From positions 1-61,335 of IMG/VR virus record IMGVR_UViG_3300008261_000017: 61,335 bases of DNA; one strand, written 5' to 3'. Numbering within the stretch: position 1 is the stretch's first letter; each line of letters begins with the position of its first letter. Source of the DNA: a virus. Taxonomy: Duplodnaviria; Caudoviricetes. This document shows, piece after piece, positions 35,830-55,525 of the stretch. The notes under the pieces were generated by a model, which did not search any database, was not told the origin of the DNA, and was given only the letters and a program-made list of their open reading frames with translations. The translations under genes were made by a program, and so were the position numbers.

Positions 35830-35900
35830 GCGGACATGGTGTAGAGGTAACACGTCATCCTTCCAAGTTGAAATCACGAGTTCGATCCTCGTTGTCCGCT
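35830..35900 (+). tRNA. trnG: tRNA-Gly(TCC), CCA not encoded
   Basis: Acceptor GCGGACA/TGTCCGC, anticodon loop CTTCCAA, T-loop TTCGATC. Confidence 0.93.
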
Positions 35901-51851: not shown

Positions 51852-52523
51852 ATGACCTTAGATCTTCATAACTTTTTTAAATTTTATGATGATAAGAACC
51901 CCAACCACGTTGCTGCGGTTCAGTGGCTAGAGGACAATCTTCCAGAGAAGTTTTTGGATGATGCACAATCCGATTGGGTTAGTATTTTTAGAACTGCTCC
52001 ACCTACACCAGCAATACTGCCTGTTCCTTATTTTAATCAGGTAGATAATTATAGAGATGCACATAGAACTTGCAATTCTTCTTCTTGTGCAATGTGCCTT
52101 GCTTATTTAAAACCAGGTTCAATTAAAGGTGATGATGAGTACGTTAAGAAAGTATTCGCAATTGGTGATACAACTGACCATGCTGTGCAGACGAAAGTTC
52201 TTGCAGGTTATGGAGTCAAGTCACACTTTAGTTACAATTTATCTTTTGCTGATATTGATAAGAGTCTTGATGCTGGAAAACCCGTTGTTATTGGTATTCT
52301 TCACAGGGGTTCTTTATCTGCACCTACTGGTGGGCATATGTGTGTTGTAATCGGCAAGACTCCAGACGGTAAAGGGTATTACGTAAATGACCCATATGGT
52401 TCACTGAACGACAATTACAGTGGTCCAGTCACAAATGGTAAGAAGACCATTTACACCAAAGCAGTTCTTAAGCATCGTTGGTGCCCAGGTGGCAACGATG
52501 GTTGGGGTAGAATTTTTGATTGA
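51852..52523 (+). CDS. C39-like cysteine peptidase with N-terminal LHNFFKFYD domain
   Basis: VPYFNQ, RTCNSSSCAM, GGHMCVVIG, VNDPYG; late promoter CATAAATA 51819. Confidence 0.8.
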   Translation: MTLDLHNFFKFYDDKNPNHVAAVQWLEDNLPEKFLDDAQSDWVSIFRTAPPTPAILPVPYFNQVDNYRDAHRTCNSSSCAMCLAYLKPGSIKGDDEYVKKVFAIGDTTDHAVQTKVLAGYGVKSHFSYNLSFADIDKSLDAGKPVVIGILHRGSLSAPTGGHMCVVIGKTPDGKGYYVNDPYGSLNDNYSGPVTNGKKTIYTKAVLKHRWCPGGNDGWGRIFD

Positions 52524-52537
52524 TAGGAGAATAACAA

Positions 52538-52762
52538 ATGGCAAGAGTAGACTTACATAACTTTTTTAAGTTTTACGACGAGAGAAATCCAAGTCATATC
52601 AAAGCAGTTCAATGGTTAGAAGATAATCTGCCAGCAACATATCTTGAGGATAATGCTGATTGGGCAGATATTTTTAGAGGTAAAAAATCTGCTTCTGGTT
52701 CATCTGAACCTGCTGCTAGTGGAGATGTTTGCCCACATTGTGGCAAATCTTTGGGAAAGTAG
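52538..52762 (+). CDS. LHNFFKFYD-domain protein; N-terminal part of probable frameshifted endolysin
   Basis: AGGAG SD; near-identical to N-terminus of the upstream peptidase; ends TTG GGA AAG TAG. Confidence 0.8.
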   Translation: MARVDLHNFFKFYDERNPSHIKAVQWLEDNLPATYLEDNADWADIFRGKKSASGSSEPAASGDVCPHCGKSLGK

Positions 52763-52782
52763 GAGGGGCAGCTCCTTCTACT
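52753..52782 (+). promoter_or_regulatory. putative -1 ribosomal frameshift signal
   Basis: In-frame G_GGA_AAG heptamer then hairpin AGTAGGAGGGG-CAG-CTCCTTCTACT. Confidence 0.65.
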
Positions 52783-53274
52783 TCTGGTGCTGCCCAAACT
52801 AGTGGTGATGATGTCCCAATGATGGGCATTAAATTAATTAAAGAATTTGAAGGATGTCATTTAAATGCTTATCCCGACCCTCTAACAGGTGGACTTCCAA
52901 TTACTATTGGTTGGGGTTCAACAAGAGATAAGAATGGTAAACCATTCCAAATGGGTGATAGTATCACTCAACAAGAAGCTGATGAGTTATTAATCAGTCA
53001 GTGTAAGAATCAGTTTCTTCCAGCACTTAGAAAAATCCCACATTGGAATGAGATGTCAGATGGAAAAAGAGGCGCTCTGCTCAGCTTTGCTTATAATCTC
53101 GGTGCTGGTTTCTACGGTGGTGATAACTTTAATACTATTACTAAACGCCTAAAGAATAAAGAATGGGACTTAGTTCCCGATGCTCTTTATCTTTACCGTA
53201 ATCCTGGTTCAAATGTAGAAGCAGGTTTGGCACGTAGAAGAAAAGCAGAAGGAGAATCTTGGAAAAAGGGATGA
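52759..53274 (+). CDS. GH24 lysozyme/endolysin domain (-1 frame)
   Basis: LIKEFEG, AYPD, TIGWGST, ALLSFAYNLG, GLARRR.AE; no evident SD of its own. Confidence 0.9.
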   Translation, partial: VGGAAPSTSGAAQTSGDDVPMMGIKLIKEFEGCHLNAYPDPLTGGLPITIGWGSTRDKNGKPFQMGDSITQQEADELLISQCKNQFLPALRKIPHWNEMSDGKRGALLSFAYNLGAGFYGGDNFNTITKRLKNKEWDLVPDALYLYRNPGSNVEAGLARRRKAEGESWKKG

Positions 53275-53377: not shown

Positions 53378-55525
53378 ATGTCTAACTACACGCAAAGGGC
53401 GCTGTCACTAGCGTCTGCGCTTCTTATTGGAGTGCCAACCGCAGCATTCGCAGAAACAATATCTGGAACAGATTTTGAGACTGGAGACACTTCGGGATGG
53501 AACACTGGAACTCAAACTGGAACATTGGATAGTACTATCACGGGAGGAGGGACTGGTGTTAGTGTCGTAGATAATCCAGTTATCTTCAATGCTGATTCTT
53601 TTCAGGCAATAGGAAGTCCAACATTACAAGATGGTTCTCCTAATCCATATTATGCACCCGCAGTAACACCAACCACTTGGGAGTTTGCTCCTTACGGAAC
53701 TGCTGGTGCTGCATTACAACCAAACGGTCAACAAACATTTAACCAAGCAACAGAAGCACTTGGTTTAACACCAGAACAAAATCAAGCAATAAGAGACCTT
53801 CTTATTCAACAACAGCAAGCATCAGGACTTGGAAATCCAAACCCAACTGATGCTGCTTGGATTACAAAATCAGTCACCTTAGAGACTGGAAAAATCTATA
53901 CAATGTCTTGGAACTACATTGGAACTGATTATGTTCCATTCAATGATGGTTCCATTACTTCACTTGTTTATCAAGGTTCAGGTTCTTCTCCATCAGTAAC
54001 AGTTAATAACCAACTTCAGAACTATGCGTTACTTGGATTTACTAATCCAGGAACAGGTGATTATTCTACAGGTTCTTTTGGTTCTACTGGATGGCAGTAT
54101 TCAACTTATCAGGTAGGTGCTGATGGTGATTATCTCTTAGGATTTGCAGTATTCAACCTTGGAGATACAGCATTATCACCAGTTCTTTTAGTTGATAGTC
54201 AACCTGGAACTACAACAGCAAACGGAGAGACATTCACTCCTGTTGCTCCAAACAATCCAGATGCACCATCTGTTGATGAGGTAGCACCAACTCCAACACC
54301 AGAACCAGAACCCACACCAGAACCAGAACCAACTCCAGAACCAACCCCTGAACCTACACCAGAACCAGAGCCAACTCCTGAACCAACTCCTGAACCTACA
54401 CCAGAACCAACTCCTGAACCTACACCAGAACCAACTCCTGAACCTACACCAGAACCAACTCCTGAACCTACACCAGAACCAACTCCTGAACCTACACCAG
54501 AACCAGAACCACCAACATTATTAAACTCTGTGACTGTTCCTGCACCAGGACTTCCAGTTGTTGTTACCACAGAAGTAACTCATACGGCAACAGAAGAAAA
54601 TGGAGTTCAGAAGATTAGGAGAGATGCGGAAATTACAACTAAAACTCCACTATTGAAGCAAGATACTTATAGTGATGGAACTGTTGTAGCATCATTAATT
54701 CTTTCTGTTGATACTGAAAATAAGCATAATGTTATTTCTGGTCGTGTAGATCAACATGAAGTTTTAGATAAGATTGGTGGTGGATTACAAAATCTGTTTA
54801 TCTACGAACCAACTGAGCCAAGCACAGACAGAGTAAGAGTATTTAATAACAACTATTATGCATGGTCTTCTGGTGAGAATGGATACAGTGGTAAGACTTT
54901 AATCATTGGTGGTGGATTAGAGATTGATATTAAACCAACTTGGACTGTTGGTGCTCAATACAATAATATGAATATTGATTTAGGTGGAGTTGATAGTACT
55001 TCTAAACTTCTGAAAAATCATTATGGAATATTCAATATGTTCCGTGGAAATACATTTTCACTCCTAACTAATGCTGGATTTACCCAGAACAAATATAAAG
55101 TTAAGAGAACAGTTCAAGGTATCTTTGGAAATGAAAGTTCATCACAGGGAAAAGAGTGGTTTGTAAATAACAAACTATTCTGGCACCTCAATAAGAATAT
55201 AACTCCATTTGTTGGATACACTGTTGGTAACTATCAGAGAGATGGGTTTACTGAAAGTGGATCAATTATATCAAGAAGAACTGTTGATGCCATTAATGAA
55301 ACTTCACACTCTGGTGAGGTGGGTCTAAATATTTCACACCGTTTTGGTGGAAAGAAAAAGGACTTATTTGGAATGGGTGTTGCTGGTTCTTATGATACTA
55401 CTGGAATGATTGAAGTATCCGCTTCTGCTGATTATAAGGAGATGGTCATTATTGAAGGAATACATCAAATCAATGATGGTGTTTCTAATACAGCAGTTTC
55501 CGCAAAAGTGAAATTTAAGTTCTGA
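53378..55525 (+). CDS. autotransporter-like protein: signal peptide, beta-rich passenger, PE/PT linker, C-terminal beta-barrel
   Basis: AFA signal; (PEPT)n; aromatic-girdle strands; ends VKFKF. Confidence 0.7.
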   Translation: MSNYTQRALSLASALLIGVPTAAFAETISGTDFETGDTSGWNTGTQTGTLDSTITGGGTGVSVVDNPVIFNADSFQAIGSPTLQDGSPNPYYAPAVTPTTWEFAPYGTAGAALQPNGQQTFNQATEALGLTPEQNQAIRDLLIQQQQASGLGNPNPTDAAWITKSVTLETGKIYTMSWNYIGTDYVPFNDGSITSLVYQGSGSSPSVTVNNQLQNYALLGFTNPGTGDYSTGSFGSTGWQYSTYQVGADGDYLLGFAVFNLGDTALSPVLLVDSQPGTTTANGETFTPVAPNNPDAPSVDEVAPTPTPEPEPTPEPEPTPEPTPEPTPEPEPTPEPTPEPTPEPTPEPTPEPTPEPTPEPTPEPTPEPTPEPTPEPEPPTLLNSVTVPAPGLPVVVTTEVTHTATEENGVQKIRRDAEITTKTPLLKQDTYSDGTVVASLILSVDTENKHNVISGRVDQHEVLDKIGGGLQNLFIYEPTEPSTDRVRVFNNNYYAWSSGENGYSGKTLIIGGGLEIDIKPTWTVGAQYNNMNIDLGGVDSTSKLLKNHYGIFNMFRGNTFSLLTNAGFTQNKYKVKRTVQGIFGNESSSQGKEWFVNNKLFWHLNKNITPFVGYTVGNYQRDGFTESGSIISRRTVDAINETSHSGEVGLNISHRFGGKKKDLFGMGVAGSYDTTGMIEVSASADYKEMVIIEGIHQINDGVSNTAVSAKVKFKF
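54287..54513 (+). repeat. Pro-Glu-Pro-Thr tandem repeat
   Basis: Repeated CCAGAACCAACTCCTGAACCTACA 24-mers and variants. Confidence 0.95.

Follow-up and report, generated by a model that had tools for sequence, protein, structure and literature searches.

The textbook cases of programmed −1 ribosomal frameshifting in tailed phages are tail chaperones and capsid variants; lysis enzymes are not among them. The locus considered here, at positions 52538–53274 of an IMG/VR contig (61335 bases, estimated completeness 30%; the whole of this stretch is referred to as the window), is a putative −1 frameshift site within a modular endolysin gene. The source is a freshwater T4-like Synechococcus phage (Kyanoviridae), and the closest named relative of the window is the freshwater Synechococcus phage DSL-LC02 (Kyanoviridae), with 81% identity across 87% of a 1.6-kb query. 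A short open reading frame (ORF) on the + strand, ORF1, ends in the slippery heptamer G_GGA_AAG and an adjoining stop codon, and the −1 frame runs on through a linker into a GH24 lysozyme. The parts of this locus and the C39 peptidase gene beside it lie on the + strand.

The −1 frameshift of the lambda G/G-T tail assembly chaperone, reportedly described by Levin et al. in 1993 and by Xu, Hendrix and Duda in 2004, offers the first comparison. It uses the same heptamer, and it likewise couples an abundant short zero-frame product to a rarer long −1 product with a common N-terminal part, in a ratio set by translation. The window locus differs in its context: it belongs to a lysis module and does not lie between tail tube and tape measure genes. 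Its neighbours are a C39 peptidase gene upstream and a gene for a repeat-rich secreted protein downstream, and its downstream frame is a lysozyme. It differs, too, in having the stop codon directly after the heptamer, a conserved stem-loop 6 nt downstream and an enzyme domain as the extension. The site would work like G/G-T without being a member of the lambda-type chaperone pairs.

In some Gram-positive phage endolysins, for instance Lys170, CTP1L and CD27L, an internal start codon provides an extra, free binding-domain subunit. The likeness is that one gene gives a full-length enzyme and a non-catalytic domain alone in a set proportion, as is predicted here. Those enzymes rely on internal initiation and release a C-terminal binding domain. 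In the present gene the domain common to both forms is the N-terminal one, with the short form ending at 52760, and the choice would lie between termination and frameshifting. Escherichia coli dnaX (tau/gamma) undergoes −1 frameshifting at A_AAA_AAG with a 3′ stem-loop, according to the excerpt available of PMC5009743. The window resembles dnaX in combining a heptamer with a stem-loop about 6 nt downstream, and a second type of cyanophage junction, that of Synechococcus phage S-PM2 (see below), has the identical heptamer. In dnaX, unlike here, the short product is the frameshift product and an upstream Shine–Dalgarno (SD)-like element helps.

Lysins have been associated with frameshifts before. 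An excerpt of PMC10885494 lists them among genes known to contain a frameshift, citing a 1994 Lactococcus lysin paper; as far as that excerpt goes, this is likewise a phage lysin with a split frame, but host and enzyme are unrelated. For genes 39 and 40 of Alteromonas phage H4/4, PMC5658483 places a −1 frameshift, with a putative slippery sequence, where the endolysin gene ends. The frameshift product is described there as an internal virion protein encoded downstream of the endolysin, in a one-sentence annotation without conservation analysis. Closer by homology are the DSL-LC02 lysozyme (223 aa), ACG-2014f gp211 (405 aa) and the S-CREM1 lysozyme (393 aa), which are homologous throughout and draw their domains from the same set (N-terminal domain, GH24 and C39). 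These are single ORFs without the heptamer or the CPHC cassette described below, whereas the window would reach this architecture only by recoding. No paper linking a cyanophage lysin or the S-PM2 lysin to frameshifting was found among the full texts searched. While the mechanism itself is a classical one, its setting in such a gene is new.

ORF1 (52538–52762) encodes a 74-aa zero-frame product consisting of an N-terminal helical domain (the N-domain, residues 1–47; 52538–52678), a Ser/Ala/Gly linker and a CPHCGKSLGK tail. On a reading of the sequence, an SD-like AGGAG (52525–52529) stands 8 nt ahead of its ATG. The tail contains a CPHC (CxxC) knuckle (52730–52741), which is kept as peptide despite synonymous third-position changes. 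The last codons, TTG(52751) GGA(52754) AAG(52757) TAG(52760), place the heptamer (52753–52759) in the X_XXY_YYZ register of ORF1, with the zero-frame stop (52760–52762) directly 3′ of it. The −1 frame is open from 52720 to a TGA at 53272–53274 and, after a slip, would read (GK)VGGAAPSTSGAAQTSGDDVPMMGIKLIKEFEG... The continuation (52759–53274) comprises 171 codons and the TGA, and a slip at the heptamer gives 74 + 171 = 245 aa. It consists of a 20-residue linker, VGGAAPSTSGAAQTSGDDVP (52759–52818), and a GH24 lysozyme domain (52819–53271) matching Pfam Phage_lysozyme (PF00959) over profile positions 1–125 of 125 (E 3.1e-22; 79.7 bits, cut-off 22.3), as well as the PHROG endolysin families phrog_7 and phrog_28234, and phrog_3617. 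The E of EFEG, the D of YPD and the T of ITIG are present by eye; going by T4 lysozyme numbering, these would be the T4-lysozyme-type catalytic residues. Only −1-frame reading of the linker after the heptamer lysine could produce the junction tryptic peptide VGGAAPSTSGAAQTSGDDVPMMGIK.

This arrangement was noticed in a first-pass annotation, which had proposed a 74-aa domain-only product and a 245-aa fusion made by a −1 slip. Sequence and ORFs agree with it on the SD-bearing 74-aa ORF with the heptamer in frame right before the stop, the Pfam match bears out its complete lysozyme, and the comparative evidence set out below supports the two products. On that evidence, the locus is considered a genuine −1 programmed frameshift site in a modular endolysin gene, with a probability of roughly 0.85.

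Conservation of the heptamer provides the first line of evidence. A scan of IMG/VR with the cassette pattern identified 37 contigs with 30 different assembly prefixes. The exact heptamer is present in context in 37/37, in every case with an immediate stop codon (TAA or TAG in 38/38, counting the window) and a −1 frame open into the lysozyme. A relaxed scan (YTN GGN AAR) gave 38 matches, namely the same 37 contigs, all with YTG GGA AAG, and one unrelated high-GC zinc-ribbon gene. Broader scans with VCPHCGK and CPHCGKPL gave, among the matches listed, mostly unrelated zinc-knuckle genes, together with 5 and 9 in-context loci, respectively, all of which have the heptamer. Codon shares in the same genes are 24% for GGA (among Gly codons), 47% for AAG (Lys) and 23% for CTG+TTG (Leu). 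From this codon usage, YTG GGA AAG would be expected at approximately 2.6% per independent lineage, compared with the 37/37 observed. Elsewhere in the cassette, Gly is variously encoded by GGC, GGT, GGA or GGG, and Lys by AAA or AAG. The agreement is more than chance would give and points to selection on the heptamer nucleotides beyond the protein sequence.

The short product is also widespread as a predicted protein. Among 111 short homologues in the protein database (clustered at 90% identity), 81 end exactly in CPHCGK[PS]LGK. Of the remaining clusters, 27 are fragments of in-frame forms and three read on where the gene caller took TAG as Q. The latter (P0003, P0047 and P0062) read ...LGKQEGQLL... 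beyond the heptamer, with TAG taken as Gln by some gene caller, and are evidently an annotation artefact arising from the recoding site.

An error of assembly or sequencing would be the simplest explanation of a split frame, and the window is itself a viral contig put together from a metagenome, estimated to be 30% complete. The same frame relation nevertheless recurs in the 37 other contigs from 30 assembly prefixes and in the 81 protein clusters, which come from several sources. A Logan DNA contig of 364 nt from run X1, which may be the source sample of the window, is identical to it across 52601–52964. Four sequencing runs were compared with the window, all as contigs, with depth at 52720–52762 only in the DNA runs X1 and X5. 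No indel is listed within 52720–52762 in these runs, and the nearest to the heptamer region is a 3-nt in-frame deletion at 52716. Error is therefore hardly credible as an explanation, and the indel that the first-pass annotation had wished to see checked is excluded by the 37 contigs.

A second line of evidence comes from the linker. Subsets of distinct sequences differ between analyses, with 22 used for the stem, 27 for start codons and frame overlap and 30 for linker stops. Stop codons in the −1 frame of the linker occur in 0/30 distinct sequences, compared with 30/30 for each of the other two frames. Distances from the heptamer to the lysozyme motif fall into six classes (62, 65, 68, 74, 77 and 80 nt; contigs occurring in both locus sets were counted twice), all of them 2 mod 3. 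This suggests that the linker is translated in the −1 frame. In 15/27 distinct variants, a −1-frame TAA lies four codons before the slip point, so that the two frames share no more than four codons, those of the heptamer and the two ahead of it. Clear homology links the −1 linker of L089 (VEGAVSSSGTAQPQTSGDDMP) with the linker (…CPHCGKPLTGEVEGTSPSPVAAQPQKSGDDMP…) that is in frame in P0113, a 247-aa in-frame fusion in which CPHCGKPL is followed by TGEVEG... in place of the GK and stop. Across the split-bearing contigs, the lysozyme domain is 82–97% identical to that of the window.

These observations bear on the possibility of two separate genes, with ORF1 free-standing and the lysozyme starting at ATG 52819 or 52822, perhaps by re-initiation after TAG 52760, and no frameshift. 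ATG-ATG precedes the lysozyme domain in 25/27 distinct variants, in phage S-SRM01 a separate lysozyme gene of 154 aa begins at an ATG that overlaps the preceding stop, and many cyanophage genes lack a strong SD. On a reading of the window sequence, no SD-like AGGAG stands ahead of either ATG. No sigma-70-like promoter was found on the + strand between ORF1 and the lysozyme (52538–52830), nor any TATAAATA motif, the T4 late consensus, near the locus. The Met-Met of the window forms part of a motif, DD[VM]P[MQ][MT]G, which is kept by in-frame fusions, where a role as start is impossible. In two of the 27 variants, ATG is missing at this point. From the heptamer to the catalytic EFEG, L105 (two contigs) lacks ATG, GTG and TTG alike, and L088 has only TTG, 3–5 codons before EFEG. 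An untranslated spacer would not stay open in the −1 frame in 30/30 sequences, nor keep six lengths all 2 mod 3. Nor would two genes account for a heptamer that is invariant even at synonymous sites, a stem at a fixed distance of 6 nt from it and a −1 linker homologous to one read in frame. Independent initiation is therefore unlikely as the general route, and two separate genes are regarded as an improbable account of the locus, although the least improbable of the alternatives weighed here.

Downstream of the heptamer, a stimulatory stem-loop is predicted at 52766–52795 (5′ arm 52766–52775, loop 52776–52785, 3′ arm 52786–52795), behind a spacer of 6 nt (52760–52765). In the minimum free energy (MFE) fold of 52760–52810, seven pairs are followed by a U-U mismatch and a further two pairs (−20.1 kcal/mol, z −1.94). 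A stem of 8–10 pairs beginning exactly 6 nt past the heptamer, with a loop of 5–11 nt, is present in 22/22 distinct 62-nt segments. When the offset is scanned, the mean number of pairs peaks at 9.64 of 10 at 6 nt and falls to 6.9–7.4 at 0–1 and 9–10 nt. At this spacing, 20/22 distinct sequences have at least 9 of 10 pairs, compared with 4.0% of 7524 positions in control in-frame linkers. The types of pair differ at 6 of the 10 stem positions, among them position 2 (G-C or C-G) and position 7 (C-G, G-C or U-A). A covariance model derived from seven sequences places the element at the heptamer in 38/38 sources. In the model-fitted alignment 186/186 cells pair (0/500 shuffles equal this; slid controls give 27–84%), the covariation score is 0.289 versus 0.196 (0/500 shuffles) and two pairs change on both sides. 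No conserved upstream SD-like stimulator was seen among the cassette sequences. The stem differs from the structure first proposed, an 11-bp hairpin at 52758–52782 with two G-U pairs and a 3-nt loop; this can be drawn, but lies outside the MFE fold and cannot form in most relatives. The caveat attached to it, that it started too close to the heptamer, falls away with the conserved stem and its canonical 6-nt spacer.

A comparable design is found at a different junction in the marine model phage S-PM2. Its gene p156, encoding an N-domain and a C39 peptidase, ends GCA AAA AAG TAA, which puts A_AAA_AAG in register right before the stop. From there the −1 frame reads VTSSTSRSKYDIPVKGVELIKEFEG... 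into a complete lysozyme without a start codon (L003 2163–2672; NC_006820 116208–116717), for which the RefSeq annotation has only a 72-aa 'putative lysin'. A joined product would contain the stretch VTSSTSRSKYDIPVK. A stem 5–6 nt downstream has a folding energy of −16.4 kcal/mol (z −3.06), and 0/200 shuffles are as stable. Among 80 IMG/VR loci found with the S-PM2 lysozyme, 17 (L437–L453, S-PM2 included) share the junction, and the heptamer is present in 17/17. The stop is immediate in 12/17 and one codon later in 5/17, and 15/17 have no −1-frame ATG. The immediate-stop loci have a covarying stem of 10–13 bp located 4–6 nt downstream. Part of the conserved GVELIKEFEG motif is encoded in its 3′ arm, and changes in its 5′ arm follow suit so that the two still pair. 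Four of the five later-stop loci look like plain start/stop overlaps (TCATGA in L447 and L449; TTGA in L444 and L446), a resemblance to overlap coupling that speaks for two genes. In ACG-2014f, the N-domain, C39 and lysozyme occur in one 405-aa frame, S-CREM1 has the same three domains in another order, and PHROG models 3617 and 10051 describe fused domain forms. As far as the sequences indicate, the lysozyme has been put behind a −1 site at two junctions with two heptamers, in independent parallel.

The S-PM2-type junction, with its run of six As, also lends something to the idea that the frame is corrected at the level of RNA, by transcriptional slippage or editing and not by the ribosome. 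Thermus dnaX uses polymerase slippage in this way, according to the excerpt of PMC5009743. The window site, though, has no run of more than three identical bases, and both an X_XXY_YYZ register and a stem at 6 nt are signals that act on ribosomes. The lack of any indel variant within 52720–52762 points in the same direction, weakly, given that it comes from two DNA runs and that contigs drop rare variants. Correction of the RNA is accordingly thought highly improbable.

How the split relates to intact forms of the gene can be seen among its relatives. A search of IMG/VR with the −1 ORF as query gave 599 relatives, of which the best 80 were analysed. These comprise 64 in-frame N-domain–linker–lysozyme fusions of 220–231 aa (52 found by the first pattern and 12 reading FFQFYD), 15 loci with a −1 split (L005–L015, L019, L021, L026 and L027) and one truncated where its contig stops (L016). 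CPHCGK[SP]LGK, the heptamer and the immediate stop occur in each of the 15 split loci, and no other kind of split or disruption was found among the best 80 of the 599. Relatives are thus not all in-frame fusions lacking the heptamer, an outcome that would have told against the first-pass annotation. DSL-LC02 itself joins the N-domain to the lysozyme through a shorter linker in a single gene of 223 aa, without CPHC or heptamer.

The split might alternatively be a tolerated frameshift mutation, the lysozyme fusion being dead or nearly so, the C39 peptidase carrying out lysis and the slippery appearance being left over from an indel. The in-frame protein P0114 has L-G-E at this point (CPHCGKPLGE), from which the loss of one base could yield GGA AAG TA, and in-frame alleles are the commoner (64 versus 15 among the best 80 loci). 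Translational 'correction' of indels is, moreover, a known use of frameshifting according to the abstract of a review. A dead part of a gene would nevertheless gather stops and out-of-frame indels; here the lysozyme stays 82–97% identical and the linker stays open. The heptamer, the position of the stop and the stem are kept while nearby synonymous sites vary, and the design recurs at another junction with another heptamer. This makes a mere mutation very improbable, somewhat more so than two separate genes. As to its origin, our guess is that the split allele arose from an in-frame one by a one-base loss in L-G-E. Scans for the DNA of the in-frame CPHC proteins P0113 and P0114 gave 80 in-frame loci each (viral and metagenome) and recovered neither; the only Cys pairs among the loci scanned were in L357/L517 (CSKCGKGL) and L595 (DCPRSDCPR).

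Several points weigh against frameshifting and should be set beside this evidence. The support is comparative rather than experimental, and the contigs of the RNA runs X15 and X17 lack cover over 52702–52785, making the RNA data unusable at the site. The excerpt of PMC5009743 describes G_GGA_AAG as highly shift-prone in E. coli, but ties the shiftiness of A_AAG to hosts with a single tRNA-Lys(UUU). A scan of genome contigs with a peroxiredoxin-like ORF of the window, aimed at the tRNA-Lys genes of the host, turned up no picocyanobacterial genome. The ATG pair ahead of most lysozyme domains leaves room for some independent initiation. On short trees the split allele does not form one clade (5 and 8 state changes); these trees, of 300 nt of the lysozyme domain and 141 nt of the N-domain, are weakly resolved and were used only to conclude that the allele is clustered without being one clade. 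The split also coexists with in-frame alleles and is therefore not indispensable. For the stem, the pair counts come from an alignment fitted to the structure, which biases them upwards, and the sequences are related. The linkers are of low complexity, rich in GCN and GGN codons. In-frame Ala/Gly/Ser-rich linkers fold nearly as stably, with a median best 45-nt MFE of −17.8 versus −21.1 kcal/mol, 77/83 of them contain some 10-mer with at least 9 pairs, and the z-score of the window's own stem is only −1.94. Folding energy was accordingly rejected as evidence for the stem, which lies instead in its fixed position and compensating changes.

Against these points stand a heptamer in register, a −1 frame open into a conserved region, synonymous conservation, a frame kept despite indels and, with the caveats of low complexity and model fitting, a covarying 3′ structure within 5–9 nt downstream. 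Programmed frameshifting remains the preferred reading of the locus. Ribosomes would start at ATG 52538 and translate the N-domain, the linker and the CPHCGKSLGK tail. Once GGA occupies the P site and AAG the A site, most would proceed to the TAG and release the 74-aa protein, while a fraction would slip back by one base, from GGA to GGG and from AAG to AAA. The slip would be aided by the stem-loop of about 10 bp located 6 nt downstream and perhaps by a slow stop codon beside the heptamer. General knowledge of shift-prone sites suggests that such a stop may give the P-site tRNA-Lys a second chance to slip while the A site awaits release factor. Slipped ribosomes would pass through the 20-residue linker into the GH24 muramidase and produce the 245-aa protein. 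We infer both the occurrence and the efficiency of slippage from these comparisons.

The best guess as to function is that the ratio keeps the muramidase a fixed minority beside an excess of free N-domain. The abundant non-catalytic partner would share this domain with the C39 peptidase, and it is in this sense that we infer a role in dosage, the preferred reading, and in the lysis control at a set ratio that was originally suggested.

Phage-borne tRNAs may be considered alongside the heptamer. The window encodes a tRNA-Gly(UCC) at 35830–35900, which reads the GGA/GGG of the heptamer. Of three long split-bearing contigs, one has a tRNA-Lys(UUU), one a tRNA-Gly(UCC) and one both; in two in-frame phages a tRNA-Gly(UCC) is present and no tRNA-Lys was detected (loci L607, L608, L611 and L615). 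The tRNAs of cyanophages are mostly of U34 types anyway. In so small a sample, this is at most a hint that they are linked to decoding of the heptamer.

The upstream gene of the lysis module (51852–52523) opens with a near-copy of the first 47 residues of ORF1, there fused in frame to a C39-like cysteine peptidase (Pfam Peptidase_C39_2, 1.5e-14; phrog_3617 and phrog_10051, 'endolysin'). This suggests that the N-terminal piece is a module which this phage attaches to wall-degrading enzymes. It is common to the peptidase neighbour and to the in-frame lysozyme fusions, and its invariant residues are D5, L6, H7, N8, F9, F10, Y13, D14, N17, H20, Q25, W26, E28, W42 and R47. An AF2 model has four short helices within residues 6–47, at moderate confidence (mean pLDDT 68.9). 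No Pfam family matched the N-domain and no usable match was found in the ESM Atlas. Foldseek comparison of the model with the PDB gave no match at E up to 0.001, and the best Z in a VIA-align comparison was only 2.2. Its partners are GH24, C39/C70 or M15 domains in varying order, behaviour like that of a wall-binding or assembly module, which the N-domain probably is. A related N-terminal module (…[FY]Y[KR]xLPHQxAAxxxLE…W[FY]xxW…), followed by GH24 and then by a C39/C70 or M15 peptidase, occurs in more distant phage lysozymes (L460–L512). From its sequence, the family appears much wider than the cyanomyoviruses, and it has no Pfam model.

CPHC is present in some in-frame fusions (P0113 and P0114) and CSKC in L357. 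Overall, the linker Cys pairs seen in in-frame N-domain–lysozyme fusions take the forms CPHCGKPL, CSKCGR, CSKCGKGL and DCPRSDCPR (P0113, P0114, P0148, L357, which is the L517 contig, and L595). Because P0113, P0114, P0148 and L357 carry a pair in frame, the pair would be a recurring protein feature of some full-length enzymes and not merely a part of the signal.

Elsewhere in the region, the next gene downstream (53378–55525) codes for a protein of 715 aa that begins with a signal-peptide-like segment, contains a long (TPEP/EPTP)n repeat and resembles a beta-barrel in its C-terminal part. Its DSL-LC03 homologue is annotated as an autotransporter outer-membrane beta-barrel protein, an odd cargo beside a lysis module. 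In DSL-LC02, an extra ORF of approximately 128 aa with a signal- or lipoprotein-like N-terminus (MKKVFALIFLASISSPAFA) lies between the C39 and lysozyme genes (L001 2168–2557). The window lacks this ORF, a possible spanin-like accessory of lysis.

A wider pattern may be proposed, tentatively and with considerable doubt. T4-like cyanophages may repeatedly have put a GH24 muramidase behind a −1 site, in at least two independent designs (N-domain–CxxC with G_GGA_AAG, and N-domain–C39 with A_AAA_AAG), the muramidase always being a fixed minority extension of an abundant partner. Short and long forms might act as a mixed wall assembly through the N-domain, with CxxC as a metal or redox link. The efficiency of the shift, possibly tuned by tRNA-Gly(UCC) and tRNA-Lys(UUU), might then serve as a dosage control of lysis.

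If the locus is indeed recoded, many cyanophage genomes would be mis-annotated, as with the 72-aa 'putative lysin' of S-PM2, and the 72–80-aa 'hypothetical proteins' of the 81 clusters would be the short arm of an endolysin. The site would provide a natural and widespread test case for the efficiency of frameshifting in cyanobacteria, where recoding has hardly been studied, and the split and in-frame alleles of close phages would be ready natural controls. It would also offer a testable idea of how a dangerous wall-cutting enzyme is dosed against a non-catalytic or peptidase partner.

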